From Trueperaceae bacterium (GTDB taxonomy: Bacteria > Deinococcota > Deinococci > Deinococcales > Trueperaceae): a stretch of 64,000 nt of DNA. The stretch covers positions 672,001-736,000 of the forward strand of contig OZ243927.1 in the NCBI GenBank assembly GCA_965213925.1, read 5' to 3'. Shown here piece by piece: positions 3 to 63,987 of the stretch. Within the stretch, counting starts at the first letter, position 1. Each line of letters begins with the position of its first letter. The notes under the pieces are model-generated. The model was not told where the DNA came from and did not search any database. It worked only from the letters and a program-made list of their open reading frames with translations. Both the position numbers and the translations under genes were made by a program.

Positions 3-572
3 TACCCCTCAGTCGAGCGCGGCGAGTACGAGTTCTTGCCCATCACGATTTCGTTAGACCGCAACGCCGACGACATCGAGCAGCAAGTTCGCTCTATCTT
101 GGACCGGCGGCGGGACGCGGACACCTACAGCATTCAGACCATCGAGGGGGCGCTAGGGCTGTTCAACACCATCACCGTAATTCTGCAAGCCGTTTTAGGC
201 GGCATCGGCGCGGTGAGCCTCTTGGTAGGCGGCATCGGTATCCTGAACATCATGCTCGTCTCGGTGACGGAACGCACCCGCGAAATCGGGTTGCGCAAAG
301 CGCTAGGCGCGAAGAAGAACACCATTTTGCAGCAGTTTTTGATTGAAGCCATCGTTTTGACCGTCGTAGGTGGCGTGATCGGGCTCGTACTGGCGGTGGG
401 GAGTCTTTACCTCATCGTCGCGCTCGTGCCTTTTTTGGAAGAGGTTGTGATCAGCCCCTGGACTATCATCCTCGCCTTTCTGGTGAGCGTGGCAACGGGC
501 GTCATTTTCGGCGTGTGGCCCGCGAACCGCGCGGCGAACTTGAGTCCGATTGAGGCGCTTAGGTATGAGTGA
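3..572 (+). CDS. ABC transporter permease, MacB/FtsX family (C-terminal part; gene starts before window)
   Basis: VGGIGILNIMLVSVTERTREIGLRKALGA and PANRAANLSPIEALRYE motifs; frame open from window start. Confidence 0.9.
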   Translation, partial: YPSVERGEYEFLPITISLDRNADDIEQQVRSILDRRRDADTYSIQTIEGALGLFNTITVILQAVLGGIGAVSLLVGGIGILNIMLVSVTERTREIGLRKALGAKKNTILQQFLIEAIVLTVVGGVIGLVLAVGSLYLIVALVPFLEEVVISPWTIILAFLVSVATGVIFGVWPANRAANLSPIEALRYE

Positions 573-587
573 GGCGGCGCGGACGGC

Positions 588-615
588 GTAGGGGCAATTC
601 ATGAATTGCCCCTAC
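588..615. repeat. GTAG-tagged REP-like perfect palindrome
   Basis: GTAGGGGCAATTCATGAATTGCCCCTAC, a 28-bp perfect palindrome just after a stop codon. Confidence 0.8.
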
Positions 616-716
616 AGAGCGCTACCATACCCCTCGAGCCCGCGCGGTAAAAACTGTCTTTTTCTCGAGCCTGAGCGCAGGTTAAGCTAACGTTTATGTG
701 GGAGGGCAGTTTAGCT

Positions 717-875
717 ATGTCAACAAGCATCTATCTAGTCGGTTACTTCATCCTCGTCGTCGGCTTGGCGCTCGGCGCGAATCTGCTCGGTGTGCCGACC
801 TCTTGGATTATCGTCGGGGTCATCATCATGGTGGGCATTGGCATCATGAGCGTTGCTAACCGTTTGCGGAGCTGA
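717..875 (+). CDS. Small 52-aa two-TM membrane protein (not in ORF track)
   Basis: MSTSIYLVGYFILVVGLALGANLLGVPTSWIIVGVIIMVGIGIMSVANRLRS*; GGAGGG RBS at 701-706. Confidence 0.75.
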   Translation: MSTSIYLVGYFILVVGLALGANLLGVPTSWIIVGVIIMVGIGIMSVANRLRS

Positions 876-951
876 GGTCAAGTTTAGGTTTGACACGCTT
901 CCGGGGTTGTGTCTGCTACATTAGCAGAGACTCAAACTTTGGAGGTTAGAG

Positions 952-1434
952 ATGAAATATCTGTTTATTCTTGCCGCGCTGCTTTTCCCTTTCGTATTCG
1001 CGCAAACGGGCGGCGAAGCGACGGGCGGCGGGGCGAGCAGTGTTGACGGGCTCGTCACCGTACAGAGCGCCTACAGCGTCGAGGAGACGCTCGCCAACTT
1101 AGAGACTGCCTTAGAAGAGAACGGGCTTATCACGGTGGCGGTGGTGGACCACAGTGCGAACGCCCAGAACGCGGGGCTCGAGCTGCCCCCCACCCGCTTG
1201 GTCATCTTCGGCAATCCGAACGTCGGCACGCCTTTGATGCAGTCGGCTCGCACCGTCGCGATTGACTTGCCGCAAAAGATGCTCATCTACGAGGACGAAG
1301 CGGGCGACGTATACGCCGCTTACAACGATCCGCAGTATCTAGCGGAAAGACACGGTTTAGCGGATATGGACGAGCAGTTGACGACGGTCTCGAACGCGCT
1401 CAGCAACCTCGCAAATGTGGCAACTGGGCAGTAA
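952..1434 (+). CDS. DUF302 domain protein with signal peptide
   Basis: VDHSANAQNAGLELPPTRLVIFGNPNVGTPLMQ...IDLPQKMLI; GGAGG RBS. Confidence 0.85.
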   Translation: MKYLFILAALLFPFVFAQTGGEATGGGASSVDGLVTVQSAYSVEETLANLETALEENGLITVAVVDHSANAQNAGLELPPTRLVIFGNPNVGTPLMQSARTVAIDLPQKMLIYEDEAGDVYAAYNDPQYLAERHGLADMDEQLTTVSNALSNLANVATGQ

Positions 1435-1444
1435 ATGATGTTAT

Positions 1445-1485
1445 AAGGTGCACGACTTTGCTCGTAAAACGAAGTCGTGCACCTT
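1445..1485. terminator. Long inverted repeat between convergent genes (terminator or REP-like)
   Basis: AAGGTGCACGACTTTG-loop-CGAAGTCGTGCACCTT. Confidence 0.55.
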
Positions 1486-1565
1486 GTGATAATAAGCTCA
1501 AGGAACGAAGTTCTGCGACCGTTCGTCCAGCTTGACTGGAAGCAACGCGCTAGGCGGGGGCGGGC

Positions 1566-4309
<2,744 letters not shown>

Positions 4310-4428
4310 TCATGTTGATGTAAGCCCCTAAAGAGCTTCTTTACCCTCTTATATACCTCATTTTTCAGGGGAATACCTGGAGGCGTTGCGAAGTTTAGCT
4401 TTAGCACTCGATTGGTGACGCGATGAAG

Positions 4429-4914
4429 TCACCGTTTAGCAAGGAACTTCTCAGCCAAAATTTTGATTACTCCGTAACCGTAAGTGGAAAATACGGGAAG
4501 CTCCTGAACCTGCTGCTGATTCGCCTTTTCGTGTAGCTGAGTAAAACCTCTCTGTAAATATCGCGTTCTACCTGCGCTTGTAGTCAAGAAAAGCCACGGT
4601 TCAATTCCGTCTTCTTCTAACGCTCTAAATCCTAGTATCTCGCCCTGATTTTCGCGAATTGTTTTGATATGAACTGCACCTTGCTTTAGCGTTTTTCTTC
4701 TGGCTATACTCTCTGAGGTGGGCGGTTTACAATCTATCCAGTCCATCAGCCCAGCAAGATAGATACCCGTATCTATCTTGCCACTCTCTAAGTGCTTTAG
4801 CTGGATTACGCGACCACAAGCAAAGTTGCCATTATCAAGGGGTATTGACCAAAAATGACCTGGCTTCAAGTATGCAGTTGATTTCGGAATAAACGGATAG
4901 CTTATCTTCGTCAT
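4429..4914 (-). CDS. Imm26-like immunity protein (orphan)
   Basis: LKPGHFWSIPLDNGNFACGRVI resembles the Imm26 N-terminus; lower GC than flanks. Confidence 0.55.
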   Translation of the reverse strand: MTKISYPFIPKSTAYLKPGHFWSIPLDNGNFACGRVIQLKHLESGKIDTGIYLAGLMDWIDCKPPTSESIARRKTLKQGAVHIKTIRENQGEILGFRALEEDGIEPWLFLTTSAGRTRYLQRGFTQLHEKANQQQVQELPVFSTYGYGVIKILAEKFLAKR

Positions 4915-4926
4915 GGTTATGTGTCG

Positions 4927-5226
4927 CTACTCCGATGAAAAATAGCTTTCCAAATCCATCCCGCCATAGAGCACATTAAAGATGTCCACACCTCCAGCCC
5001 GTTTGCGGTAGATAATCATGTAACGCTTGTAGGGCAGCGCAAGTGTGTCCGCAGGGAGATAACTGCGAGGCAAGCCGAGACCGGGAAAATCAGCTAACCT
5101 TTGAAAGAGACGGAACAAGTTATCAAAAAGCTGTGTCACATTGTCTTCTGTGCCGCCTCGCTCCAAATAACCGTCCCATAATTTGGCGAGGTCAGCGGCG
5201 GCAGGGTCGGTAATGAAGAAGTCCAT
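4927..5226 (-). CDS. RelE/ParE family toxin
   Basis: 99 aa; AAADLAKLW...LADFPGLG...YMIIYR...VDIFNVLYGGMD; 1-bp overlap with upstream antitoxin. Confidence 0.8.
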   Translation of the reverse strand: MDFFITDPAAADLAKLWDGYLERGGTEDNVTQLFDNLFRLFQRLADFPGLGLPRSYLPADTLALPYKRYMIIYRKRAGGVDIFNVLYGGMDLESYFSSE

Positions 5227-5510
5227 CAGCGCGTTTTGCGTTCACGCTCAGCCCGTAACTCCCTCCCACGTTTAATGACCTTTTGCTTGAACGCCTCAGC
5301 TTCTTCAGGTGTGCTAATTAGCGTGCCGCGTCCAGCGTCAGCCGCGTCAATACCCTCTTGCACTCTGGCACAAATCTCGGCGGTGCGTTCTTGATACCGT
5401 TGCCATAAATTCAATGCGTGAGCCAATACTTCACTTTCGTCTGAGTATTCTCCCGTCTCGAGCTGCTCGTCCACGAAGCGCCGCTGCTCAGGGGTAAGTT
5501 CTATCGTCAT
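5226..5510 (-). CDS. ParD-like RHH antitoxin
   Basis: MTIELTPEQRRFVDEQLETGEYSDESEVLAHAL; leaderless-type TATCCT-N6-ATG. Confidence 0.8.
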   Translation of the reverse strand: MTIELTPEQRRFVDEQLETGEYSDESEVLAHALNLWQRYQERTAEICARVQEGIDAADAGRGTLISTPEEAEAFKQKVIKRGRELRAERERKTR

Positions 5511-5553
5511 AGTTTAAGGATAGGCGTTTTTTGAAGAGGTTGCAACGAGATGC

Positions 5554-5898: not shown

Positions 5899-5909
5899 GA
5901 AATGTCCAC

Positions 5910-6998
5910 CTAGCCGGTACGAAGCGGCACCACCATCGCCAAATAACTCGTATCTTTAAGGCTCGCCAGCACACTCGGGCTCGTCGGACCGGAAAACGAA
6001 AAGCGCACGTCTCCCTCTACAGGTCTTAGCGCACTCGCCAAGTAATCCGCGTTGTAGGCAAGCGCAATCTCCGACTCGGTCCCCTCTTGCGAGACCTCTA
6101 GCGCCTCCTGAGAGCGCCCGTACGCCCCCTCCGCAGTAATCTGTAGACTTCCGTCCTTGATAAAGAGGTCTACGCGGTTGTTCGCCGTTTTGTCCGCCAT
6201 GACCGCCACGCGCGAAACCGTTTCTAAGAGCCTAGAAGCATCCAGCAATATGCTCACCGGAAATTGCGAGGGAATGACGCGCTCGTAGTCGGGGAACGTC
6301 CCTTCCATCAGTTTGATGTTGAGCTTAAAGGGACCGCTTTGCACCGAGAGTTGAGAGTCGGCAAGCTCGAGCTTCGCCTCCCCGCCCCCTAAAAGCCTAC
6401 TGAGTTCGTCCACGCTCCGCGCCGGGATGACGATGTCGCCATCGAGCCCGCTCGCGTTTTCCATATGGTAATACGCCAAGCGAAACCCATCCGTCGCCAC
6501 CGCCCGCGTCTTCTTATCGTTGAATTCGACCTTGACCCCGCGAAAAATCGCCTGATACTCTGCCACCGCCGCCGCATACCTCACGTGATTGAGTGCGTCC
6601 GCGAGTTGTGAGCCGTCGAAACGCCCGGCGTACCCCTCTGGGAACGTGACCTCTGGAACCGTCGCGGCGTCCGCGAGTTGCAGTTTCGTGGCGTAGCTGC
6701 CGGAGCTTATCTCGAGTTCCTTATCGTCAAACGCGAGTTCGACCAGCTCACCCGGAAGAGAGCGCACCACCTGTCCAAAGACATGCGCAGGCAGCGCGGC
6801 GTGTCCACCCCCCGACACGTCAGCTTGCACGGTTGCTTGGATGTCGATATCCATATTGCTGCCGCTAAAGGTGATCCCCTTCTCCCCCATCGTCATGCTG
6901 ATGAGGCTCAAACCCGGATTGCTGCTGCGACTAGGAATGATGCGCTCGATGTTGCCGAGCACCTCGGCGAGTTGTTTGCGCGGAACCTGTACGTTCAT
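5910..6998 (-). CDS. dnaN: DNA polymerase III beta clamp
   Basis: AVATDGFRLA, GTFPDYERVIP, C-terminal MVVPLR; start moved to ATG 6998, which follows TATGCT-N7. Confidence 0.97.
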   Translation of the reverse strand: MNVQVPRKQLAEVLGNIERIIPSRSSNPGLSLISMTMGEKGITFSGSNMDIDIQATVQADVSGGGHAALPAHVFGQVVRSLPGELVELAFDDKELEISSGSYATKLQLADAATVPEVTFPEGYAGRFDGSQLADALNHVRYAAAVAEYQAIFRGVKVEFNDKKTRAVATDGFRLAYYHMENASGLDGDIVIPARSVDELSRLLGGGEAKLELADSQLSVQSGPFKLNIKLMEGTFPDYERVIPSQFPVSILLDASRLLETVSRVAVMADKTANNRVDLFIKDGSLQITAEGAYGRSQEALEVSQEGTESEIALAYNADYLASALRPVEGDVRFSFSGPTSPSVLASLKDTSYLAMVVPLRTG

Positions 6999-7329
6999 AG
7001 AGGTGAGCATACCGAAAATTGGCGTAGGGAAAAAGCGGCTCGAGAGGAAACTAGGGAGAACGTGAAGCGGAAGAGGTTTTAAGAGGTGTAAGAAGTAGAG
7101 AGGTCAATTTGGAAAGCGAGATTTTTCTCAGTGCTCTCAAGGCTGACAAGTTAGCTTTTTAGAGAAGAGGTTGGAGCGTCTTTCAAAAAGTCTTTTGGTT
7201 TTGAAAGTTCCTTGAAGTTGACCTCTTGGTTGCTCTCTTTTCAACTCCTCTTTTTTCGTTGGATCATGAGAACGCACGTTTTCCCTAAGACTTTACGGTT
7301 GACGAAACGAAAATTTTTCAAAGGTTCTA

Positions 7330-7545
7330 ATACTCTATAGTAGGGCCTGTGGATAGTGTGGATAACTATGCTTTGTCCCGTCCAGGACGACAAAGTGCCT
7401 GTGGATAATTTTGTGGATAACTCGCCTTTGCCTGTGGATAACTACCCGAGTTATCCACAGCTATCCACAGGCTGTGAAAAACCCCTAGTTATCCACAGTT
7501 TATCAACAGGATATCCACAGCTTATCCACAGAGTTTTCCACAGGT
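7330..7545. other. oriC: Replication origin oriC: 13 DnaA boxes with GC-rich spacer and DnaA-trio-like sequence
   Basis: TTATCCACA-type 9-mers (either strand) at 7348, 7357, 7400, 7412, 7433, 7451, 7461, 7473, 7489, 7500, 7511, 7522, 7534; minus strand reads box-GGCCC-TACTATAGAGTA; lies between dnaA and dnaN with an AT-rich flank. Confidence 0.95.
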
Positions 7546-7938
7546 GTATGTGAGTAATCTATTTGTTTTATGATAGATACACGCGCAAATTTAATGAAAT
7601 TTTAGTGTGTTACTGAAGATTTCAGTACTACTTCAAGTGCATAAATTCTGATTTTTAGAAGATAAACTTGGAAGAGCCACCAAGAAGTATTTGCTTAGCG
7701 ATCCTCTCGAGTTCTGAAAGTTGAAGGGTGTACTAAGAGAACCTCTTCAGTCCTACGATGACCTCTTTTTAACCTCTTGTTTTTTGGTTTCCTCGGTTGG
7801 GATTAAATAGACTCGAGCTGTTTGGCAATAGATTTACTGAGCTTAGCGTTATAAATAAGCTATGATCTCTCAGCAAGGGGTTGATCAACTTCTTCTATAG
7901 CAAGGATGTCCTCGAGAACATCACCGACCAAGTTGTAT

Positions 7939-23704: not shown

Positions 23705-24742
23705 ATGAACATTCTTGTCTTAGGCGGTACGAACTTTATCGGCGCACACGCGGTGCGGCGGCTCGCCTCGCCCAGTTCTACGTCACCGGGTCATGAGGTT
23801 ACGGTGTTTCACCGGGGTGAAACGGAAGCTGAATTGCCCGAAAGCGTGGAGCATATCTACGGTGACAGAAAGAGGTTACGCGAGTACCAAGAGGTGTTTG
23901 CGGGGCTCGAGCCTGATATTGTCTTGGATACCCTAGCGATGACCGAAGTGGACGCGAACGCTGTTGTAGAAACTTTTCAAGGACTCGCGAAGCGCTTGGT
24001 TGTGCTGAGCAGCGGCGACGTGTACCGCGCATATGGGCGACTTATCAAGCAAGACCCCGGTCCACCCGACCCTACCCCTCTTACTGAGGAATCACCTCTT
24101 AGAGATAAGCTCTATCCTTACCGAGACTATGCGGACGGTCCTGACGACTTCGAATACAGCTACGACAAAATTTTAGTCGAGCGCGCAGTGATGGCGCAGC
24201 CTGACGAATTGCCCGCAACCATATTACGTCTGCCGATGGTATTTGGCCCCGGTGACTATCAGCACCGCTTGTTCCCTTACCTCAAAAGGATGGACGACGA
24301 ACGCCCCTTTATTCTGCTCGCTGAGGATTGGGCGAGCGCAAGGGCTCTGCGCGGTTACGTTGAAGATATGGCGGAGGCAATTGCTTTATGTGTGACGAAA
24401 GAGGAAGCGGCGAACCGTGTCTATCACGTGGCGTATCAGGAAAACTATATGGAAGAGGTCTGGTTGGACGCGGTCGCTGAAACTGTTGGCTGGAAGGGCG
24501 ACGTTATCAAAATCCTGAACGGTGAGCTTCCTGAGAGTTTGCAACATCACATGGACATGAGGCAGGACTGGTCGGTGGACTCGAGGCGCATCCGCACCGA
24601 ACTCGGCTACGAAGAGATCGTGCCGCTCGAGGAAGCGTTGCGCCGTACGGTCGCGTGGGAGCGCGAACACCCGCCCGAAGAGGTTGACGTGAAAAAGTTT
24701 GACTACGAAGCTGAGGATGAGGTCGTCGGGCGTATAAGCTGA
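23705..24742 (+). CDS. NAD-dependent epimerase/dehydratase family protein
   Basis: MNILVLGGTNFIG, YDKILVE; TATAAT-N6-ATG leaderless start. Confidence 0.88.
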   Translation: MNILVLGGTNFIGAHAVRRLASPSSTSPGHEVTVFHRGETEAELPESVEHIYGDRKRLREYQEVFAGLEPDIVLDTLAMTEVDANAVVETFQGLAKRLVVLSSGDVYRAYGRLIKQDPGPPDPTPLTEESPLRDKLYPYRDYADGPDDFEYSYDKILVERAVMAQPDELPATILRLPMVFGPGDYQHRLFPYLKRMDDERPFILLAEDWASARALRGYVEDMAEAIALCVTKEEAANRVYHVAYQENYMEEVWLDAVAETVGWKGDVIKILNGELPESLQHHMDMRQDWSVDSRRIRTELGYEEIVPLEEALRRTVAWEREHPPEEVDVKKFDYEAEDEVVGRIS

Positions 24743-47119: not shown

Positions 47120-48358
47120 GTGAACCAAAACTACAAAAGCCAAATTAGTGTAGATGAAGCGCTAGATAGTCTAAGAGCGAACGCTGAGCCGTTAGAGAGC
47201 GAAGAGGTTGACCTCTTGAACGCACTTGGAAGAACGCTCGCTGAGGACCTAACAAGCAAAGTGGACCACCCGAGCTGCGATAACTCTGCTCTGGACGGCT
47301 ACGCCTGCCGCGAAGAAGATACGCTAGACGCCGCTAAGCACAGTCCGGTCAAGCTCAGTCTTGTCGGAGATATTCCAGCAGGTAGCACCTTTTCGGGAGA
47401 GGTCGGCGCGGGCGAAGCGGTAGGCATCTATACGGGCGCACCCGTGCCGAGCGGAGCGAACGCGATTATCGGGGTGGAGTATACGGAGCAACGTTCGGGG
47501 CAAAGAGGTGAAGAGGTCTGGCTCAAGAAGCCAGCGAGTAAAGGAGATATCCGCCCGAGAGCGCAAGACTTGAAAAAAGGTCAGGTCTACTTGCAGAAAG
47601 GAACGCGCCTGACGCCTTCCTCAGTCGGCATCGCGGCTTCGATGGGCTATCCGACATTCAAGGTCACGAGAAAACCTAGAGTCGGCATCCTAGCGACAGG
47701 CGATGAGGTCATCGATCCTGGCGAGCCGATCCGGGACGGGCAGGTCTACAACTCGAACGCTTACTCGGTAGCGAGCCTTATAGAACAAGTGGGCAGCGTT
47801 CCTGTACTCCTACCGAAAGTCGAAGATAACCCTGAAAAACTCAAGGGCGCGTTGGAGGCTCTAGGCGGCGTAGACCTCTTGATTACCTCGGGCGGCGTCT
47901 CGATGGGCAAGTATGACTTCGTGCGCGACTTGCTCTTTGACGAGGGCACGGTGCACTTCTGGAAAGTTGCGATGAAACCGGGCGGGCCGGCGATGTTCGG
48001 CGAGTGGCGCGGCTTGCCGGTCTTTGGGCTGCCTGGAAATCCGGTCTCGAGCATGGTCGTCTTTTCCTTACTCACGAAGGTGTGGCTCGACACGGCGCTC
48101 GGCTCCACCGAACCGCCACTTTTTCACAAACGCATCACCGCCACTGCCGCCACACCCTTCAAGGGAACAAACCGCAAAGTCACCCTCAACCGCGCCGCGC
48201 TGAGTTTTGAACCCCAAAGAGGCTATCTCGCGCACAGCACGGGGAGCCAGAGTTCGGGCGTGCTGACCTCGATGTTGAATGCAGATGTGCTCGTCGTAGT
48301 GCCGCCTGATAGAAGGGTTGAGGAGGGGGATAGGCTCGAGGTCATCCCCCTACCTTGA
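47120..48358 (+). CDS. moeA: Molybdopterin molybdenumtransferase
   Basis: NSALDGYA, IYTGAPVP, TSGGVSMGKYD, KPG, LPGNPVS. Confidence 0.95.
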   Translation: MNQNYKSQISVDEALDSLRANAEPLESEEVDLLNALGRTLAEDLTSKVDHPSCDNSALDGYACREEDTLDAAKHSPVKLSLVGDIPAGSTFSGEVGAGEAVGIYTGAPVPSGANAIIGVEYTEQRSGQRGEEVWLKKPASKGDIRPRAQDLKKGQVYLQKGTRLTPSSVGIAASMGYPTFKVTRKPRVGILATGDEVIDPGEPIRDGQVYNSNAYSVASLIEQVGSVPVLLPKVEDNPEKLKGALEALGGVDLLITSGGVSMGKYDFVRDLLFDEGTVHFWKVAMKPGGPAMFGEWRGLPVFGLPGNPVSSMVVFSLLTKVWLDTALGSTEPPLFHKRITATAATPFKGTNRKVTLNRAALSFEPQRGYLAHSTGSQSSGVLTSMLNADVLVVVPPDRRVEEGDRLEVIPLP

Positions 48359-51179: not shown

Positions 51180-51343
51180 ACGGCTACGTAGACCTCTGTG
51201 CGAAGAGGTCACAGGACCGTCGCCCGTTCGCGCTCATACAAGAGAAGACCCCGGTCATGCCGGGGTTCTAAGCGGCGATGCCACCCAGCAAAGCCTTGCT
51301 AAGAGTGTAGCAAAGAGGAATAGTTCACACAGCGCGGCGGAAG

Positions 51344-51361
51344 CCTGTGTCATGACACAGG
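51344..51361. promoter_or_regulatory. 18-bp perfect palindrome, candidate operator
   Basis: CCTGTGTCATGACACAGG. Confidence 0.5.
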
Positions 51362-51444
51362 GTCAAGATGCTGTGTACGAACGCTCGAGAAATACTCCAT
51401 AATTTCCAACTGTACTGGATGATTCCAACAATCTGTCAATCTCG

Positions 51445-51687
51445 CTACTCCTGAAGTTCCGCCTCCTCCAATAGCTCTTCCGCTCTCTCCAGAAGCGCCT
51501 CCACCTCCTGCACCTTCTCGACCGCTTCGGTAGACGCGCCTTCTAACGCTTTCAGTTGCGAGGTGCGAAGCTGGACGTGCGCGATAAGGCTCTGCATCCT
51601 TTTGACTTCGTGGTCGAACTCCTCTTGCGTGGCTTTCCCGGTTTCTGTTTGCTCAGGCGTGTCTGACGCAGGTGACTTAGTCATCAT
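51445..51687 (-). CDS. Small acidic coiled-coil hypothetical protein
   Basis: About 80 aa; TATCCT -10 directly upstream. Confidence 0.55.
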   Translation of the reverse strand: MMTKSPASDTPEQTETGKATQEEFDHEVKRMQSLIAHVQLRTSQLKALEGASTEAVEKVQEVEALLERAEELLEEAELQE

Positions 51688-51731
51688 CAAAGGATAGGAG
51701 ACGAGCGAACGTCCTCTTTGTAGTGGAGACT

Positions 51732-51834
51732 AAAAAGACCCCCGCTCATTGAAGGGCCGGGGGAGAGAGGAGAGGCAGGGCGTAGATGAGGGTGCACGGT
51801 GCTATTTAGGTCGGTTCACGACGTTGCCCTGCCT
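51732..51834 (-). ncRNA. Candidate sRNA (about 103 nt)
   Basis: -10 TAAAGT, 5' hairpin AGGCAGGGC/GCCCTGCCT, unpaired CTCCTCTCT, terminator CCCCCG..CGGGGG-TCTTTTT. Confidence 0.65.
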
Positions 51835-51875
51835 GAACGCACTTTAGAGCAACCCTTCTGACAGGATTCTTACAG

Positions 51876-52316
51876 TCAGCGAACGTTCACCGTACGCTCT
51901 ACCGTAATTACTCCTCCCTCAGGTTCGCTTCGCCCGCGAATAATAACAGTCGCCGTCCCTGTCCGCTCGAAACGCACTGACCCTACATGCTCATGAAACA
52001 ATATTATTGTGTTACAGGTAGTTCGTACACCTGTCTCCTCGTAATCGTAAGGTGTAATTGTAGCCTCCAAATTATTCGTATCTACGTTGGTTTCTCCTTT
52101 TTCTGTACATCCACCCCCATAGGTCGTCACGCTCACCTGGAACTCCTGACCTCGTTCTACCTCCTTAGGAACTTGCACCTGCACTGGCTCACCAGAAAGT
52201 TCAATGAGCCCAATGCTCCGGCTCCGGCCCTTAAACAAGCTACAAGCACTGAGCAAAATGAGAAGGATGCCTAATACGATTACTAACTTAGTAGAAACTA
52301 TAGCTTTAGACCTCAT
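51876..52316 (-). CDS. Hypothetical lipoprotein with beta-rich domain
   Basis: LLILLSA-C lipobox; two further Cys; AAGGAG RBS. Confidence 0.75.
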   Translation of the reverse strand: MRSKAIVSTKLVIVLGILLILLSACSLFKGRSRSIGLIELSGEPVQVQVPKEVERGQEFQVSVTTYGGGCTEKGETNVDTNNLEATITPYDYEETGVRTTCNTIILFHEHVGSVRFERTGTATVIIRGRSEPEGGVITVERTVNVR

Positions 52317-52565
52317 CTTTTTTCTCCTTCACTTACGCGAATGACCTCAGAACTGAGTTTCATGATTTGAGTTCTAAAAGCCTTATCGAGGATATCGTCC
52401 TACTGATTCATTCGAGATAACAATAAGTAGTAATGAGCTTGTGCTCTACCCTCCTTTATACTCGCGGCAGACCACTGCACTGGGTACCTGCTTATCAGTA
52501 ACTCAATTCGATGCTCCACCAGGTTAGGTAGCCTATTCCTTGGCAGCCTGCAGAGGAAGCCATCG

Positions 52566-53600
52566 TCAATCTACATCAAGGTTCCCTAGATCAGCCTCTA
52601 CACCTTCGAAGGAGCTGAAGGTAAAGTAGATTCTTTTACCTGTAACAGTTGGTCTGACGTACCTTGCCCAATTGATGCCGTAAAGTGTATCGATGTCTCC
52701 AACGGACGAGGTTCTTAATACAGGTGAGCCACTGTCTCCACGTTCTGTATTGGCTCGGACGCGAGTTTGGCAGAGGAGGATGACATTTGAATTATCACGC
52801 CCAAAGTTAGCACAAGAGTTGGCAACAGCACCCTCAGTGTCACCAGTCGTTTGACCTACCTCATGTAGTCTAACGCCTACCCAATTTGAGTCTGGTAAAC
52901 CGCTCTTACTGCTATCTATTTATTCGGTGCGGTATATCTCGAGCGGGTCCGAAGTCGAAATTTCTGCCTTTTGCTTTGTAATAGCGTACCTTCTCGAGTT
53001 GCTGATCGAAGGCCGATACCGCACGAAGATACTGTCACTGTAGCGGCAGCGACTACCAGAGGAACAGCTTCCGCCCGTAAAGCCACTGTAATCCCTAGCT
53101 TCATCACCTATATAGTCACCACCCTGATAGAACCGAGTATTATCGTTTGCATCAGTACTACTACAATGCGAATTCGTAACAAAGCCGCTGGCGTTTAGAC
53201 CGTAGTGATAAGCATTGAAACCTAACGTACATGACCCAACATTACTGGATATTCTTACACCGCCTACTGTCGGGCGTACTCTATCATCTAAAGTAAGAAC
53301 AGGCTCAATCTTACCTTCTTCGAAAGTTACCGCCTCGCTAGGTATGTCAAGTTGGTCAAGTTTTTTTAATTTTGACAGCTACATCTTTACTCTCTACCCC
53401 GATCAAAACTCGGTTGTTTTGCTCATCAACGTCCGTAAAAATGACACTAGGGAACGAGAAGACATAGTTGTCGGCTTTCTGCCGCCACTGCGTAAGGCTC
53501 GAGAAATCGTATTTGCCCTGAAGCACCTTAATCTCACCTTCGGGAAGTTTTGGATGATTATTAGAAAAAATTCGTGTCGTATTTGTGAGATTTTTTACAC
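52566..53600 (-). pseudogene. Disrupted S1 (trypsin-like) serine protease with propeptide
   Basis: CTLGFN, GFVTNSHC, RYSDS, GDSGSP; frameshift at the A7 tract (53361-53367), in-frame TAA at 52920-52922, no intact 5' end. Confidence 0.85.
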
Positions 53601-53734
53601 TTCATCTTAATTATTATTTCACATTAGGTTGCGGGTGGTTAGGTTGCGCTTTGACTGCTATTTTGCGTCAACGGTATCTGCGAACTTGGGCTATGCTTCT
53701 AAGTCTTTGTAGCACCCAAAGCAACAGCTATTAG

Positions 53735-54214
53735 TCAGAAGAACTTAGGAAAGACCGTGATGCCAATCGCGATGACGATGAAGATTTTGGCGAACACCCC
53801 ACCGAGTGTGCCGACGAACGCGCCCAAGCCTGAGCGGAGCGCCTCTTTGAAGGTCCGCTTGGTGAGGAGTTCTGCGCCCACCGCGCCAACGACCGCGCCA
53901 ATCAAAAACCCGAAGGGCGGAAGGAAAAAGATACCCACCACCGAGCCGATGATGCTGCCCCACACGCCCGCCTGACTCGCCCCGTAGCGCCGCGCCCCAA
54001 TCACGCCCGCGACGTACTCGATAATTTGCGCGAGCACGGCGAACGCAGTGACGATGACGACGGAGGAGACTGGAATCTGCTCGAACCCCGTCATCCACCC
54101 CGCCAAAAGTGCGCCGAGCGCCGCGAGGGGAATCCCCGGCACAACAGGCAGAATGATGCCGACGATACTTACCAGATAGAAGAGGATGAAGACGAGCGCT
54201 GCGAGGATATCCAT
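53735..54214 (-). CDS. DUF456 (YqgC-like) membrane protein
   Basis: GIILPVVPG, GARRYGAS..G.WGSIIG. Confidence 0.85.
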   Translation of the reverse strand: MDILAALVFILFYLVSIVGIILPVVPGIPLAALGALLAGWMTGFEQIPVSSVVIVTAFAVLAQIIEYVAGVIGARRYGASQAGVWGSIIGSVVGIFFLPPFGFLIGAVVGAVGAELLTKRTFKEALRSGLGAFVGTLGGVFAKIFIVIAIGITVFPKFF

Positions 54215-54304
54215 ACGCTCAGCATGGCAGATGTAGCGCTCAGGTGTCTACTAGAAAGAAGAGGTGAAGTGGAGTACACCGTTAAGTAAGTTTTGCAACA
54301 CTGT

Positions 54305-55221: not shown

Positions 55222-55328
55222 GGGCTTAGCATACAGGGGTCTTCGACTTTTTGTCATTGTAAAAAACCATATCGGGAAGCTCGAGTTTCACGCTGACATA
55301 GAGTGCAAGGATATATGCGCAGTACCGG

Positions 55329-55379: not shown

Positions 55380-55547
55380 CTTTGCGCTGAGGGATGCGTT
55401 CACAAAAACTCGAGTCAAGAGATGGACGTAGAATCTCCTCTTTTGTACGTCCCCGTCCGCAACGTTTTACTACACGCCCGTCAGCGCGGTAGGCTAGAGC
55501 GTTTGTTAAGGTCATCTTTACGCATCCAACGATAAGGAGAACGAACG

Positions 55548-57712: not shown

Positions 57713-57806
57713 GGCTTTGGCTCGAGCCTCCAACTATCCCGAACATCAAGAGGTCAATGACGGTTTTTCAACGCGCCACCCAATTTTTCTCAAGTACATT
57801 AGATAA

Positions 57807-58854
57807 ATGAGCGACCTGCATATCTACGGGCTACTGCGTGACTGACATGCTAATAAGTAGCAATACTTGCTTAACGGTGCACTTAGTTTTATACGTTAAG
57901 AGGTGAATATGCCTATTAAGGAATATTTCTATATTTTTCTTAGCGGTATTTACGAGCAAGCCGCGCCGCGCCAAGCCGATCACGTGTGTTCACGCGCGGC
58001 TTGGCGGTGACGTGCTAGATGTGCAGCAGCTCGAGCCGCTTCTTAACTTCCAGGCGTTCGAGTCTCTTTTAGCGCGTCCTGGTCCCTGGACGATGGGCAT
58101 CGACGCGCCTTTCGCGCAGCCGCGGCGCTTGGTCGAAGTGCTGGGTTGGTCTCCTAGCTGGGACGACTATGTCGAAGAGGTCGCGGTGCTCGGCAAGGGA
58201 GGGTTTGAGCGGACCTTAAAGGACTATATCGCCGCCCAGCCTGGAGGCGACAAGCTCCACCGCCGCCGGGTGGACGAACGCGCGAAAGCCGTAAGCCCGA
58301 TGTCGCTCGCTTACGTTCCTGTAGGCAAGATGTTTTATGAGCTTGCGCCGCGGCTGCTGCGCACGAACCTCAACCTCCCGCTGCTCCGCGAAACGGCGGA
58401 GGATAGAACCGCTTTAGAGGTTTATCCCGCGCTCATCGTCAGGCAGCTTATCGGCAAGCGGAAGTATAAGAGCGACACCAAGCAGCAGCAGACCGAGGGG
58501 ATGAGGGAGGTGCGGCGCGAGGTGATCGAAACGCTGCGCTCGGGGGTGTACGGAATGAGGCTCGAGCTTGGCGGCGTGCTGAGCGCGTACCTCTTGGACG
58601 ACGCGACGGGGGACGCGCTCGACGCGACCCTCTGCGCGGTGCAAGCGGCGTGGGCAGCGAGGCAAGAGAATTACGGAATACCGGACGGAGTGGACAGGCT
58701 CGAGGGGTGGATTGTCGATCCGACACTTAAAAGCCCTTTACGTTTGGATCAGTTCAACGCAAGACTATCAGGAAAAAAGCGGCGTGAGCACCTAGAGGGC
58801 ACCTTTCTATTTGCTGAGTACGCTTTGCCTGACGCAACTCGCCATGTTTGTTGA
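57807..58854 (+). pseudogene. DUF429 family gene split near its 5' end by an AT-rich insertion
   Basis: MSDLHIYGL | insert | FTSKPRRAKPITC...GIDAPF...LEVYPA...DALDA. Confidence 0.7.
57832..57948. mobile_element. AT-rich insertion of about 115 bp flanked by TA (MITE-like)
   Basis: Ends TACTGC... and ...GCGGTA (short imperfect inverted repeat); removal restores the reading frame. Confidence 0.45.
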
Positions 58855-58909
58855 CTGGGCTCGAGCTATACCCTACCGAACTACTCAAGATTTCTGTTAT
58901 AGTAAAACC

Positions 58910-60037
58910 GTGAAAGACGTCGTGCCCGCCGCTTCTCTTAGGTCCAGCACCGAACCTCTTGCAAGCTACCCTGCGGAACCTGCGGCGCTGACGCTTCACG
59001 CCCTCACCAAAAGCTATCAAGACCCCAAGCATCCGGCGGTCGCCGACTTCAACTTAGAGGTCAAGAAGGGCGAGATTTTGGCGCTCTTGGGGCCGTCAGG
59101 CTGCGGCAAAACGACGCTCTTGCGCCTTATCGCGGGCTTCGAAGTTCCGGACAAAGGTCACATCGAGGTCGCGGGCACCCAGGTCGCAGGACCGGACACG
59201 TGGCTCCAACCCGAGCGGCGCAACATCGGCTTCGTCTTTCAGGATTACGCGCTCTTTCCGCACCTAGACGTGCTGCAAAACGTCGCGTTCGGACTGGCGG
59301 GGCTACCCCGAAAGAAACGTATCGAGCGGGCGAAGGCGGTCTTGGACTTAGTCGGCCTCACCATCTTTAGCCGCCGCTATCCGCACCAGCTTTCGGGCGG
59401 TCAGCAGCAGCGTGTGGCGTTGGCGCGGGCGTTAGCGCCTGAGCCCGAGGTCATCCTTTTAGACGAGCCCTTTAGCAACCTAGACGCCGCCCTGCGCGGC
59501 TCGACGCGGCGCGAGGTGCGGCGCATCTTAGAAGCGTCCGGGGCGACGACGATCCTAGTCACCCACGATCAAGAGGAAGCGATGACCTTTGCCGACAGGC
59601 TCGCCGTGATGCGCGCGGGGCACCTTGAACAGGTGGGCGTGCCGGAGCGTGTCTACTTGCGCCCGCGCACGGCGTTCGTCGCCAACTTCTTAGGGACGAC
59701 CAACCTCATTCGCGGGACGGGTCGCGAACACGTCGCCGATACGCTTTTGGGCACGCTTCAAGTCGCGCAGCCCGTGATGGGGTCGGCGCTGCTCTCGTTG
59801 CGCCCCGAAGACCTGACCTTCGGCGAGAGGGGTGTGAGCGTGAGCGTCTTGAACCGCGACTTTAAGGGACACGACCTGACCTACACCTGCCGCGTGATCG
59901 CCGAGCCCGACCAGGTAGGGCAGACCTTTGTGGTGCAGACTGGACCGGAATGCACGGTGCAAGTTGGCGACGTCACGCGCCTCTCGAGCCGGGGCGTCGC
60001 GGTGCCCCTTGAAGGCAGCACGAGCAAGCCTCTCTGA
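58910..60037 (+). CDS. ABC transporter ATP-binding protein (FbpC/PotA-like)
   Basis: GPSGCGKTT, FQDYALFPHL, LSGGQQQR, LLDEPFSNLD; TATAGT-N6-GTG at 58910. Confidence 0.88.
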   Translation: MKDVVPAASLRSSTEPLASYPAEPAALTLHALTKSYQDPKHPAVADFNLEVKKGEILALLGPSGCGKTTLLRLIAGFEVPDKGHIEVAGTQVAGPDTWLQPERRNIGFVFQDYALFPHLDVLQNVAFGLAGLPRKKRIERAKAVLDLVGLTIFSRRYPHQLSGGQQQRVALARALAPEPEVILLDEPFSNLDAALRGSTRREVRRILEASGATTILVTHDQEEAMTFADRLAVMRAGHLEQVGVPERVYLRPRTAFVANFLGTTNLIRGTGREHVADTLLGTLQVAQPVMGSALLSLRPEDLTFGERGVSVSVLNRDFKGHDLTYTCRVIAEPDQVGQTFVVQTGPECTVQVGDVTRLSSRGVAVPLEGSTSKPL

Positions 60038-60298
60038 AAAATTAGTGAACGACGAGGAGAACCTCGGCTCGAGATTAAAACTATCTAAACGAATCGGGCG
60101 CGCGAAGTGCTTTGCTCGTAAGCAAGCCGCCACCACAAGGAGAAACCGATTCACTCTTTTGGTCACTGCGTGAAGGCACTGTCATCTTTTTATCAGATAG
60201 AAGAGGTTGTGCAGGCATAAGATATAGATAGTGAATTACGAATGTACATCCAGCACACTCCAAACACAACGCAACGCAACCTCAACAGGAGAATTGCT

Positions 60299-61063
60299 AT
60301 GTCACCATTAAGGTATTCCCTCAGCATGTTGTTAGGACTTTTGCTCGTGACCTTCAGCCTCGCCGCAAGTCAAAACGACCGAGATGGGGAAAATTTCTAC
60401 GACTCGGGCTCGGCCCAAGGTTGGACGCGCGAGTTCTCCGCAGGGCGCTCCTACAGCGTCAAAAGCGTGAGCGCACCGACGCGGCGTGGCGGCAGGGCGC
60501 TGCGCATGGAAACGCGCTACGGCGACCGAGAAAACAGCTACCATTCGGAGTTGGAGATGCACGGCGCGGGCGAGCCCGGCGAGCGCGCGTGGTACGGCTT
60601 TAGCACGTACGTCCCGACCTCTTGGGTTGATAGCGAGCAAACTGTGATCACCGCACAGTGGTGGAGCCATAGCCGCGCGAGCCCCCCGCTCGGCATCGAA
60701 ATCGAGGGCGACGAGTGGGTCGTCTTTCAGCGCTGGGACGAGGGGGACGAGGGTCTCTCTAAGCGCGCCGTAGGCACCGTGCGCAAAGGGGAATGGACCG
60801 ACTGGGTCGTCGAAGCGTATTGGTCGGACCGAAGGAACGGTTACGTAAAAGTCTGGCGTAACGGCGAGGTCGTTTACGAGCGCGAGGGGCCGAGCGTCTA
60901 TAGAAAAACGGAGCGTCTGCGCTTCAAGTTAGGGGTCTACGCCTGGCCCTGGAAGTACGACCGCCCCTCGCCCAGGAGGAGCAGCCCGCGCGTCATCTAT
61001 CACGACGAAATTCGCATCGGCGGCGAGAACTCGAGCTACAACGCCGTGAGCCCGAGAGACTAG
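60299..61063 (+). CDS. Secreted polysaccharide lyase-like protein (beta-jelly roll)
   Basis: Signal peptide; WYGFSTYVP, ITAQW, GEWTDWV, GYVKVWRNG, FKLGVY, YHDEIRIG; AGGAGA RBS. Confidence 0.75.
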   Translation: MSPLRYSLSMLLGLLLVTFSLAASQNDRDGENFYDSGSAQGWTREFSAGRSYSVKSVSAPTRRGGRALRMETRYGDRENSYHSELEMHGAGEPGERAWYGFSTYVPTSWVDSEQTVITAQWWSHSRASPPLGIEIEGDEWVVFQRWDEGDEGLSKRAVGTVRKGEWTDWVVEAYWSDRRNGYVKVWRNGEVVYEREGPSVYRKTERLRFKLGVYAWPWKYDRPSPRRSSPRVIYHDEIRIGGENSSYNAVSPRD

Positions 61064-61287
61064 CGCAAAACGAGCGGCAACCGCACTTCGCGTAAGGTGC
61101 CGGCCTCGTCAACGCAGAGTTCCCACACCGCAAGCTCGGGGCGCAATTCGTAGGCTCGCAGCTCGAGCTGCCGCCAAAACTCCGCGTCCCACAGGTGCCG
61201 ATGTTCGATGAGGTGCTCTAAAAAGCGCGGCGGCGAGGAGCCCCCGAGTGTGAAGTCGAGCACCTCGAGTAGATCACGTTTATTCAT
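61060..61287 (-). CDS. Small hypothetical protein
   Basis: 75-aa ORF; TATGAT -10 directly upstream. Confidence 0.55.
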   Translation of the reverse strand: MNKRDLLEVLDFTLGGSSPPRFLEHLIEHRHLWDAEFWRQLELRAYELRPELAVWELCVDEAGTLREVRLPLVLR

Positions 61288-61409
61288 CTTGCTGCATCAT
61301 ACCGCGCCGCCATCTCCAACGTTGTTTCGGAAGGCGCGGTAGGCAGAGTTCACCTGTTGAGTAGGAAACCGAAATTAAGTACATCGTTAAGCAAGGAATG
61401 CGGCACGGT

Positions 61410-61645
61410 TGTCACCCCGTTCACGAAGTACGGCGAAGCACGGTTGTCGAAGGGTCCCGTTTGGCTATGCCAAAACTCCGTAATTAGCTGTGCTAAAACT
61501 TCATAACTTGCAATCTCAGCTAGAGGAGAAGGCGAATGCAGAGATTCTTTCACGGAATCCTACGTTCATCGTAGGGCGGAGTCTATCCTACACTCGCCAT
61601 AGGGTGGAGTCTATCCTATAGCTCGCTGTAGGGTTCAGAATGACA
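61410..61645. repeat. TGTC(A)-tagged composite palindromic element, copy 2
   Basis: TGTCACCCCG...AAGGGTCCC...GAGATTCTT...TTCAGAATGACA with internal TAGGG.GGAGTCTATCCTA duplication. Confidence 0.8.
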
Positions 61646-61672
61646 TACTTCATTTTTTAGCTGACAGTGTGC

Positions 61673-62476
61673 TCACTCCGCTTCCAACGACAACTCATAC
61701 GCCAAATTGCGAGGCGCACCAAAGGTCATCAAGGCTTTTCTGAGGTCGCGCCCGCTGAGCCCTTCGGCGGCGAGTTCCTTGGCTTTCGCTGCGAAGTCGG
61801 TTTCTTCGGGCTGAGGATTTGGCGACACGACCACGACGACTTCACCGCGCACCTCACCCTGGGAAAGCTGCGCCTGAACCTTTTGCAGGGTTCCCCGGTA
61901 GGTCGTCTCAAAGCGTTTGGAAAGCTCGCGGCTGACGCTGACTCGTCTCGTCTCACCACAGACCTCTCCTAAATCTCTAAGCGTGGCGAGCAACCTTTTG
62001 GGCGACTCGTAAAAAGCGAGCGTCACCTCGCTCTTGGCAATCTGAGAGAGAACCTCGCGCCGCGCCGAACCTTTGCGCGGCAGAAAGCCTAAAAAGGTGA
62101 AGCTTCCGAGCGGCAAGCCGGAAAGGACGAGCGCGGGAATTAGGGCGGTAGGACCGGGCAGAACCTCTACCGTATCGCCGCGCTTGAGTGCGATTTGCAA
62201 GAGGTCCGCGCCGGGGTCAGACAGTCCAGGTGTACCCGCGTCGGTGACAAAAGCGACACGCCCATGCTCGCTCAAGACGCCTTCGCCCCTTGTTGGAATC
62301 GTGTGCGCGTCTAGGCGCACGAGCGGCTTGTCTATCTCGAAGTGGTTGAGCAGCGTGCGGCTGTGGCGGGTGTCCTCGGCGGCGATGAGGTCAGCCTCGC
62401 GGAGCGCCCGGAGCGCCCGCAGCGTGATGTCCTCTAAGTTGCCAATGGGCGTAGGGACGAGGACGAGGTGGGCCAT
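61673..62476 (-). CDS. rsmI: 16S rRNA C1402 2'-O-methyltransferase
   Basis: PTPIGNLEDIT, AEDTR, DAGTPGLSDPG, YESPKR, RELSK. Confidence 0.96.
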   Translation of the reverse strand: MAHLVLVPTPIGNLEDITLRALRALREADLIAAEDTRHSRTLLNHFEIDKPLVRLDAHTIPTRGEGVLSEHGRVAFVTDAGTPGLSDPGADLLQIALKRGDTVEVLPGPTALIPALVLSGLPLGSFTFLGFLPRKGSARREVLSQIAKSEVTLAFYESPKRLLATLRDLGEVCGETRRVSVSRELSKRFETTYRGTLQKVQAQLSQGEVRGEVVVVVSPNPQPEETDFAAKAKELAAEGLSGRDLRKALMTFGAPRNLAYELSLEAE

Positions 62477-62504
62477 AGCGGAGGGTGAGAAAATTCTGAA
62501 GAAG

Positions 62505-62699
62505 TTAGACGCCGACCATGTCGGGCGCGGTTCGTCCTCGGCTGCGGCGGCGGGCGTTGCGCTTTAGAGCAGCGCGCATCTTTGCCCGCAGCATCTCCAC
62601 CTCGCCTACAGTGACGGTAACTTCCGCGCCTTCGGGCAGCGTCACGCCCTCGGGTAAGATAATCACGCCTCTTTCTACCAGTCCTTTATAAGCTCGCAT
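62505..62699 (-). CDS. Small protein, DUF104/AF2212-like N-terminus
   Basis: YKGLVERGVIILPEGVTLPEGAEVTV. Confidence 0.6.
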   Translation of the reverse strand: MRAYKGLVERGVIILPEGVTLPEGAEVTVTVGEVEMLRAKMRAALKRNARRRSRGRTAPDMVGV

Positions 62700-63117
62700 T
62701 CTGTTCCTCCTCAGCTAGCTCGAGCCGCAGCGCGGCGATCACTGTCTCGGTGGCTTCCGTGTCCTGTCCCGCTCTCCCTAACACACGTCTGTAAGACTCG
62801 AAAACGCGCAGGGCTTCGCGGGGGCGTCCGACTTCGATGAGCAAGTCGCCTAGATGCTCACCGTAGGAGAGAAAAGCGGCGGGGTCGCCCGCCCTAACGC
62901 GGCGTTTCGCTTGAATGGCGGCGATGCGCTCCTCTAAAATCTGGCGGCGCTCCACGCGGCTGCGCACCACGCCCCACGCGACAAGAAAAATCGCCGCCGC
63001 TACGGTTGTTATTATACTAAACCCTCTAGGCACCCCTAGCTCTTCGGCCAAGTTCACTAGGAAGGGAAAGGTAAAAGCGAGCGCCGCCAAAAGCGCGATG
63101 AGCGCGGCGTAGTTCAT
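62686..63117 (-). CDS. Hypothetical membrane protein with TPR-like C-terminus
   Basis: 2 TM segments then a helical domain; overlaps the next gene. Confidence 0.65.
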   Translation of the reverse strand: MNYAALIALLAALAFTFPFLVNLAEELGVPRGFSIITTVAAAIFLVAWGVVRSRVERRQILEERIAAIQAKRRVRAGDPAAFLSYGEHLGDLLIEVGRPREALRVFESYRRVLGRAGQDTEATETVIAALRLELAEEEQNASL

Positions 63118-63258
63118 CTAAAATCCAGAGGTCAGTTTGACCGCGCTACTCGTGTTCATCTGGTCCACGACGCTACTTTCTTCCATCCCCTCATCTTAAC
63201 GCGTTTTTGACCCCGTCATATCTTCATTTCGTCGGGTGCGTGCTAAAATAGCCGGAAT

Positions 63259-63987
63259 GTGAAGTCGGCGCAGCCAACCCCACCCACCGTACCTAGTGTG
63301 GAGAAGCCGGGGTCAACCCCCGAGCCCGCCGAAGTGCGCCGCGTACCCATGAGTTACGAGGCGTACCTGAGCTATGAGAATGAAAGCGTCCGTAGCGAAT
63401 GGGTGGACGGAGAGGTCGTCGTCTATGTGCCGCCGAAAGCCGAGCACCAACGTATTCTTGCTTTTCTCGAGCGTCTTCTCGCCCTCTTTGTCAATCTAAA
63501 AGGTTTAGGTGAGGTCAATATCGCGCCTTTCGAGGTCAAGCTGTGGGAGGAGGGTCCCTCGAGAGAGCCCGATATCTTCTTCGTCAGCCAGGCGTCGCGC
63601 TCCAGATTCAGCCCCGAGCGCTTTAGCGGCGCACCCGAACTCGTCACAGAGATTATCTCACCGAGCAGCCTCCATATCGACCGAAACACGAAACCCCGCG
63701 AGTACGAGCGGGCGGGCGTGAAGGAGTACTGGGTCATCGACTCGAGACCCGACAAGGCGCGCGCGGACTTCTTCAAATTAGATGACACGAACCGCTATGA
63801 CCTCTTCGCTACTGAGACCGATGAGACGGTCACGTCCGAGGTCGTAGAGGGCTTTTGGTTGCGCCCTGAGTGGCTCTGGCAACCTGACCTTAATTCCCTA
63901 AAAGCGCTTGCAGAAATCGTCGGCAAAGAGGCGCTGATCGAGGCGTTGCAGAGTGATATGGAGGAGGGCTCAAGCGAACCCTCCTAA
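63259..63987 (+). CDS. Uma2 family endonuclease, copy C (divergent)
   Basis: EWVDGEV, EPDIFFV, PELVTEIISP, GVKEYWVID. Confidence 0.9.
   Translation: MKSAQPTPPTVPSVEKPGSTPEPAEVRRVPMSYEAYLSYENESVRSEWVDGEVVVYVPPKAEHQRILAFLERLLALFVNLKGLGEVNIAPFEVKLWEEGPSREPDIFFVSQASRSRFSPERFSGAPELVTEIISPSSLHIDRNTKPREYERAGVKEYWVIDSRPDKARADFFKLDDTNRYDLFATETDETVTSEVVEGFWLRPEWLWQPDLNSLKALAEIVGKEALIEALQSDMEEGSSEPS

Follow-up and report, generated by a model that had tools for sequence, protein, structure and literature searches.

The window analysed here is a stretch of 64,000 nucleotides from the chromosome of a Trueperaceae bacterium (G000:C1:672001-736000), whose genome, G000, comprises 4.75 Mb in six contigs with a guanine-plus-cytosine (GC) content of 58.4%. 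Towards its left end lies the chromosomal origin, where a cluster of DnaA boxes is flanked by dnaA and dnaN and adjoined by gidA, parA and parB; Pfam confirms DnaA, DnaN, GidA, ParA and ParB. Genes and spacers across the window carry numerous copies of a short non-palindromic word, AAGAGGT (ACCTCTT on the opposite strand; both orientations are meant below unless one is named). An earlier note on this stretch had estimated about 90 copies against roughly 6-8 expected and had proposed a genome-wide signature motif. Our exact search found 92, and each of the 20 positions singled out in that note is a true copy. In 100 dinucleotide-preserving shuffles of the window, the mean was 6.54 copies (sd 2.54), the maximum was 12 and none reached 92.

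The excess extends to the whole genome. G000 holds 5,851 copies on its two strands, or 1.23 per kb, versus 443, 502, 1,548 and 5,019 expected under Markov models of order 0, 1, 3 and 5, respectively. By z-score, none of the 8,192 strand-collapsed 7-mers surpasses AAGAGGT at order 1 or at order 3, and seven do so at order 5. The order-5 model comes close to being circular, since copies of the word account for 56-60% of the AAGAGG and AGAGGT hexamers in the genome.

For the distribution over genes and spacers, we used our own crude gene calls, made from open reading frames (ORFs) and codon scores and not from curated annotation. Genes contain 2,645 sense and 2,305 antisense copies (4,950 in total), compared with 745±22 and 535±21 (about 1,280) in 20 within-gene synonymous-codon shuffles, which preserve the protein and its codon usage. 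The word is thus enriched in the sense and the antisense orientation of genes alike. A single triplet register holds 78% of the 4,946 copies that lie wholly within genes on chromosome C1, namely xAA GAG GTx in sense (2,213 copies) and xAC CTC TTx in antisense (1,669 copies); this register encodes common residues, E/K/Q-E-V or D/N/H/Y-L-F/L. The density is 1.30 per kb in coding and 1.05 per kb in intergenic DNA, where 811 copies were observed versus 114 (order 1) or 223 (order 3) expected. In spacers of 40-300 bp, chosen as unlikely to conceal missed genes, 278 copies stand against 40-73 expected, a 4- to 7-fold enrichment that makes AAGAGGT the second commonest 7-mer there.

Together, our results demonstrate that the excess persists in Markov z-scores, in codon-preserving shuffles and in intergenic density, and that AAGAGGT is a genome-wide, DNA-level word beyond codon usage, as the earlier note had supposed. 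That note would have abandoned the idea if the enrichment had vanished under codon-preserving or order-5 Markov nulls, or if intergenic density had matched expectation. None of these grounds speaks against it, since the synonymous shuffles, the intergenic counts and the spacers all show the excess and the order-5 null is circular.

AAGAGGT has sharp borders, and the unit is a 7-mer and not an octamer. Among the 732 copies with intergenic flanks, the flanks together contribute no more than about 0.2 bit (C at +8, 40%; G at +9, 38%; G at -1, 34%), and the commonest 19-mer containing the word occurs only 4 times in the genome. An extended motif or repeat element was ruled out by these nearly information-free flanks. 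The 21 one-letter variants occur at 0.8-6 times their order-1 expectation, versus 11.7 times for AAGAGGT itself; this is a mild enrichment, with no clear depletion of any variant, and the C-to-T variants stand at 1.6-2.6 times expectation.

AAGAGGT is also strand-symmetric. With respect to replication, 2,902 copies are co-oriented with the fork and 2,906 opposed to it (fraction 0.500), and each of the 22 bins of 200 kb has as many forward as reverse copies. Chromosome C1 itself is essentially without GC skew (absolute skew at most 0.017 in 200-kb bins), although the dnaA-oriC-dnaN origin is clear, and without gene-strand bias, 0.495 of its genes being co-oriented with replication. Around oriC in the window, 9 copies on the + and 3 on the - strand lie to the left and 47 and 33 to the right, in agreement with the earlier observation that orientation does not flip there. 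The seven copies that were said to flank oriC are real, but their cluster is not exceptional, as up to 13 copies occur within 800 bp elsewhere. The left-hand four are kept in the congener G001 at matching offsets left of the DnaA boxes. The right half of the flank is not conserved, since its three copies are missing at the matching place. An oriC-specific role was rejected in view of the many denser clusters elsewhere and the conservation of the left four copies only. The best named relative of the DnaA protein of G000 is that of an uncultured Deinococcales metagenome-assembled genome, at 64% identity. The features of the window are listed in Table 1.

Table 1 Features of the window (positions count from the first nucleotide of the 64,000)
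Feature	Position	Strand	Basis
AAGAGGT, 92 dispersed copies in genes and spacers	439..63806	both (56 +, 36 -)	exact-match positions and strand split
dnaN	5913-7010	-	Pfam DnaN
Four AAGAGGT copies (+,+,+,-) in the spacer from dnaN to the DnaA-box cluster	7071..7227	both	exact match
Cluster of TTATCCACA-type DnaA boxes (oriC), between dnaA and dnaN	7340..7550 (about)		sequence read
Three AAGAGGT copies right of the DnaA boxes	7741..7778	-	exact match
dnaA	7942-9291	-	Pfam DnaA
Two direct AAGAGGT copies, 19 bp apart	23870..23895	+	exact match
Inverted pair AAGAGGT-TG-ACCTCTT	47202..47217	both	exact match
Two direct AAGAGGT copies, 8 bp apart	47503..47517	+	exact match
AAGAGGT-free 3-kb stretch, also without the palindrome GCTCGAGC	51204..54258		low-GC core 51900-53700

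Two further candidate roles were considered and set aside. About 50 sense copies precede called starts by 11-15 nt and resemble Shine-Dalgarno elements; they make up less than 1% of all copies. The 19 most AAGAGGT-dense genes are unrelated and encode assorted housekeeping enzymes; as only three of them are DNA-related (SbcC, ThyX and FtsK), we make no claim of a bias towards genome-maintenance genes. Other words are also common in the spacers of G000. They include the 7-mer AGCAATGA/CAATGAG and the recurrent 12-mers ATGTCATTCTGA (115 copies) and GATGATACCTGC (103 copies), which are probably small dispersed repeats.

The word is scarce on the second replicon and in accessory regions. Contig C2 (127,737 bp), a plasmid-like replicon with its own ParB (C2:87225-87500) and a GC content similar to that of the chromosome, carries 0.23 copies per kb compared with 1.27 on the chromosome, and is thus 5.6-fold poorer. 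On the chromosome, AAGAGGT-free gaps longer than 5 kb number 62 versus 10 expected, and those longer than 10 kb number 5 versus 0.02 expected. In ten of the largest gaps, a scan of 78 proteins revealed genes of accessory type: polysaccharide synthesis, the reverse transcriptase of a group II intron, a RES-Xre toxin-antitoxin pair, MarR and HxlR regulators, glyoxalases, giant surface proteins and a Type I restriction fragment. One of these free stretches, 12.6 kb long and located within G000:C1:2668001-2682000, combines a group II intron reverse transcriptase/maturase beside a truncated TelA gene with the RES-Xre pair. In the window, the earlier note had seen no copies in a low-GC island at about 51.9-53.7 kb, and none is indeed found between 51203 and 54259; the GC content of this core is 0.455 versus 0.567 for the whole window, as would fit a recent acquisition. 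In G001, the density is 1.66 copies per kb where the DNA aligns to G000 and 1.10 where it does not. AAGAGGT therefore marks native chromosomal DNA.

To delimit its phylogenetic extent, we counted the word in 21 relatives of G000. An excess was found only in two congeners, G001 (6,319 copies) and G002 (6,219 copies), where a reversed control word occurs about 650-700 times. A wider survey of the family, with 81 genomes in 36 genera, again showed enrichment in no more than three, all of this genus. The best of the 78 non-enriched genomes, which include G043, flagged as unpublished, has 1,241 copies, 4.7 times its control. Samples of 200-220 kb from three sister genera (GC 0.60, 0.52 and 0.42) gave 41 versus 40, 23 versus 17 and 48 versus 32 copies observed and expected, so that the word stands at expectation in each. 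The enrichment is thus genus-specific.

A second abundant word in these genomes, the palindrome GCTCGAGC, is a separate phenomenon. It occurs at 1,751 sites in G000 versus about 300 expected at order 1 (in the window, for example, at 7040-7047 and 7811-7818), and on C2 it keeps its chromosomal density (0.41 versus 0.37 per kb). It is hyper-abundant throughout the family and also in a second family of the order, where counts reach up to 3,795 sites among these genomes, and it is conserved between species (64 of 103 sites, versus 0.32 for all 8-mers). Sister genera favour other flanks around the palindrome, such as ACTCGAGC or ACTCGAGT in G003. The reversed palindrome CGAGCTCG, which contains GAGCTC, is nearly absent from genomes G000-G020, with 38 sites in G000 and a single one in either of G016 and G020. 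Such scarcity resembles strong avoidance and is perhaps related to restriction.

We then asked how well the sites are kept in related species. Comparison of 400 kb of G001 with G000 gave an alignment of 288,570 bp with 82.8% identity. Within this alignment, 301 of the 406 aligned G000 sites (74%) are intact in G001, whereas the share for 7-mers of the same coding class in general is 31-40%. For spacers, 32 of 48 sites are retained versus 33% of 7-mers. Conservation reaches silent third positions. GAA codons inside the word are kept in 71 of 77 cases versus 0.61 for the same codon elsewhere (p=2e-9), and GAG codons in 144 of 151 versus 0.79 (p=2e-8); for AAA the figures are 31 of 31 versus 0.67, for CAA 36 of 38 versus 0.65, and for antisense CTC 112 of 120 versus 0.79 (p=6e-5).

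Addition of 400 kb of G002 yielded a three-way alignment of 112,101 bp, in which 90 sites are common to all three species. Losses on the terminal branches amount to 30 of 120, 16 of 106 and 25 of 115 sites (15-25%), whereas about 46% would be predicted from the mean per-site change of 0.084; losses thus fall short of the number expected from average substitution by a factor of 2-3. Sites present in a single species (94) and losses in a single lineage (71) are similar in number, as expected near steady state. The clear evolutionary signal is retention of existing sites. Tracts of inter-species exchange, sought as a sign of transformation, were not found at 95% identity or above in two 400-kb samples, and recent exchange was dropped as such a sign.

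One possible explanation is that AAGAGGT acts as a self tag resembling the DNA uptake sequences of Neisseriaceae and Pasteurellaceae, a reading that we favour tentatively and with less than even confidence. A sequence-specific factor would recognize the double-stranded word in either orientation, and the machinery of type IV pilus, ComEA and ComEC would bind or import DNA bearing it more efficiently. Homologous replacement would then favour alleles with the word, which would be kept preferentially on the resident chromosome. In this way the word could persist at about 1.2 per kb in spacers and in the frames least costly to proteins (xAA GAG GTx and xAC CTC TTx), while it would be missing from the plasmid and from DNA of recent origin elsewhere. 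The uptake machinery as the reader, biased uptake and the competence of these organisms are what we infer from this pattern.

Competence genes, which the uptake reading requires, were found in G000. ComEC and ComEA adjoin each other, and DprA and a PilQ-type secretin are also present. There are two major-pilin-like genes, as well as a cluster (C1:571135-576750) in which five N_methyl minor pilins precede a PilX_N protein of 659 aa (C1:574774-576750). The latter was considered as a ComZ/PilY-like receptor candidate and discarded: it has no sequence match in the PDB, and its phyletic pattern (64% in G002, 52% in G005, split in G001) is uninformative.

A rather different explanation invokes an asymmetric DNA methyltransferase whose site, AAGAGGT, is amplified by methylation-linked biased repair of the HIP1/Vsr kind or serves methylation-dependent uptake. 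G000 does encode many N6/N4 methylases, among them classes that read asymmetric sites of 6-7 bp (Type ISP-like, Eco57I/MmeI-like and large N6_N4), the sharp borders of the word resemble those of a restriction-modification site, and HIP1 and RAATTY, cited below, provide published precedents. However, the genome, which is 96.9% complete, has no match to C5 methylases (PF00145) or Vsr (PF03852), and no one-letter variant is depleted, the C-to-T products included, so that a Dcm/Vsr-type drive is not indicated. We compared nine methylase genes among the species, leaving out an HsdM on C3, a TGA-interrupted gene at C1:2621508 and one weak sub-threshold hit. Six have no ortholog in G001 or G002, one has an ortholog in G001 only, and one has a 48% homolog in G001 and a 76%, stop-interrupted homolog in G002. 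The ninth, a Type ISP-like gene at C1:1126369-1129620, is syntenic in the three species, but its specificity domain has diverged, and its ortholog in G009 occurs in a genome without AAGAGGT enrichment. This gene encodes coupler, methylase and specificity domains and no nuclease or helicase. Its core (residues 1-500) is 78-99% identical among the three species, whereas residues 601-800 of the specificity domain are 30-54% identical, and residues 801-900 are 90% identical between G000 and G001 but 28-30% against G002. This divergence points to different specificities of the orthologs, and the gene looks like an orphan methylase of hypervariable specificity. The DNA flanking it is 92-97% identical between G000 and G002 (G002:C5, a 21-kb contig), where the genomes average about 81%; this could reflect recent inter-species exchange or a binning artefact. 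Since the factor behind a word found in three species should be common to all three, and none of the nine genes compared is so with a conserved specificity domain, a methylase is an unlikely writer of AAGAGGT, and the asymmetric methyltransferase site with biased repair that the earlier note had suggested appears improbable. Another of its suggestions, a Chi-like site, considered here along with polar chromosome signals such as the FtsK-orienting (KOPS) and SpoIIIE-recognition (SRS) sequences, fares worse still. AAGAGGT is short, over-represented and non-palindromic, with copies near oriC. Yet it has no polarity, and no RecC was found in G000 (AddAB was not searched), which disfavours a Chi- or KOPS-like signal; known Chi sites also lie far below its 12-fold excess and its density of 1.2 per kb. 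We give this reading very little credence. It is equally hard to credit that the excess merely follows from codon, amino-acid or oligonucleotide composition, or from a dispersed repeat family. The order-5 ratio of only 1.17 and the concentration of genic copies in one frame encoding common residues could be taken in its favour. Synonymous shuffles, however, fall 3.9-fold short of the genic count, both gene strands and the spacers are enriched, silent sites are conserved, there is no extended consensus, and sister genera across a range of GC contents show no excess.

The uptake tag has a close rival, from which our data do not separate it; an uptake sequence and a nucleoid-protein site had both been among the suggestions of the earlier note. 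AAGAGGT may be recognized by a DNA-binding factor peculiar to the genus, which works on the resident chromosome and has no part in uptake, a reading that we regard as possible though doubtful. Such a factor could organize the nucleoid, or stimulate homologous recombination or repair irrespective of orientation, with its sites under weak purifying selection. A sharp 7-bp word fits a single DNA-binding domain, and retention without a detectable acceleration of gains fits selection on existing sites better than drive. The four copies kept beside oriC, and a chromosome that bears the word next to a plasmid that largely does not, also agree with it, and the abstract of a study on HIP1 (10.1101/2024.09.10.611283) proposes a recombination-stimulating role for that other abundant word. 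On the other hand, no candidate protein was identified, and if about 5,800 sites are selected one by one, the coefficient at each must be very small and yet effective. We know of no nucleoid protein with a sharp 7-mer site enriched 12-fold, and the depletion in islands is equally compatible with any slow lineage-specific process. Several observations also weigh against the uptake tag. Known uptake sequences have 9-12 bp and graded flanks, in contrast to the sharp 7-bp unit with its 0.2 bit of flanking information. A pure uptake drive should raise gains as well, but gains from shared precursors were not detectably faster, although the numbers are small (transitions 10/181 versus 5.7%, transversions 6/317 versus 1.4%). 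No concentration in terminators was seen, with only 14% of copies intergenic and similar spacer densities at divergent (1.05), convergent (0.93) and tandem (1.09 per kb) gene pairs; tandem spacers hold 251 sense and 222 antisense copies, which is near equal. Genome-wide, inverted pairs spaced by up to 60 bp are about as frequent as expected (116 observed versus 110), and a few neighbouring copies form terminator-like hairpins. By comparison, about half of the copies of the known DUS and USS uptake sequences, described below, lie in terminators according to an excerpt of a preprint (Helsem et al. 2025). The three sister-genus samples contain no asymmetric dialect of the word, and only CTCGAG-based palindromes stand out in them. 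The competence genes do not discriminate between the readings, because they are common in non-specific transformers. Finally, the PilX_N homolog is apparently split into three ORFs in G001 (C4:3430258-3432160), the genome with the most copies of the word; this may be a pseudogene or an assembly error. What probability remains beyond all these readings goes to an explanation not yet thought of.

To our knowledge, only two families, both of them proteobacterial, are known to take up DNA in a sequence-specific manner, and how and why self tags arise is a long-standing question. No report of AAGAGGT, or of any uptake sequence in Deinococcota, was found in the literature. It is tempting to speculate that AAGAGGT is the first DNA uptake sequence outside Proteobacteria, with an independent origin of sequence-specific transformation in one genus of Deinococcota, a possibility that we put forward with reserve. 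Alternatively, and no less novel, it may be a self word that works on either strand and is read by a factor of recombination, repair or the nucleoid in a lineage lacking RecBCD; it would then belong to a wider, so far undescribed class of clade-specific genome words. AAGAGGT is a young, genus-level case, with clean sister genera, three species that are about 83% identical, a sharp word and measurable turnover. The plasmid and the islands, which lack AAGAGGT but bear the family-wide palindrome, provide an internal control. Because the sharp word, the measurable turnover, the clean sister genera and this control come together, the origin of such a tag is directly testable here. Should something other than the uptake machinery read the word, this would indicate a system for reading DNA in Deinococcota that has yet to be described. 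For practical use, AAGAGGT could be added to constructs for better genetic manipulation of these bacteria, and it is usable as a flag for foreign DNA in their genomes.

Among known genome words, Chi and KOPS/SRS share with AAGAGGT a short, non-palindromic, over-represented sequence. Unlike AAGAGGT, they are co-oriented with replication and much rarer. The cyanobacterial HIP1 (GCGATCGC) is closer in several respects. Its positions are conserved across species, as computed here for AAGAGGT, and both are hyper-abundant short words found in genes and spacers alike. HIP1 is, however, an 8-bp palindrome with a cognate methylase and a phylum-wide distribution, whereas AAGAGGT is non-palindromic, is confined to one genus and has no conserved methylase among the nine tested; the HIP-like palindrome that does occur in the AAGAGGT genomes, GCTCGAGC, is separate and much more widely distributed. 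For HIP1, a link to transformation has been published: according to the abstract of the same study (bioRxiv 10.1101/2024.09.10.611283), it raises transformation in Synechococcus PCC 7002. In Campylobacter jejuni, too, a short word serves as a mark of self DNA in uptake: according to the published account (PMC10046745), only DNA methylated at RAATTY is taken up. HIP1 and RAATTY thus tie genome words or marks to transformation beyond the classical families. The RAATTY mark needs a conserved methylase, and none of the nine methylases tested is common, with conserved specificity, to our three species.

The nearest parallels are the DNA uptake sequence (DUS) of Neisseriaceae and the uptake signal sequence (USS) of Pasteurellaceae. 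AAGAGGT differs from them in having 7 bp and sharp borders instead of 9-12 bp and graded flanks, in not being concentrated in terminators or inverted pairs, and in having no dialects in the sister genera sampled. Its host belongs to Deinococcota and not to Proteobacteria, and no receptor was identified. Other features correspond. Like DUS and USS, AAGAGGT occurs about once per kb, equally in both orientations, in spacers and in the least costly frames of genes. It is clade-specific, depleted in acquired DNA and on the plasmid, and conserved in position between species. Its one-letter variants are mildly enriched, a feature that recalls the mismatch gradient described for uptake sequences in an excerpt of Bakkali 2007 (PMC1939737), and its host carries the genes for type IV pilus, ComEA, ComEC and DprA.

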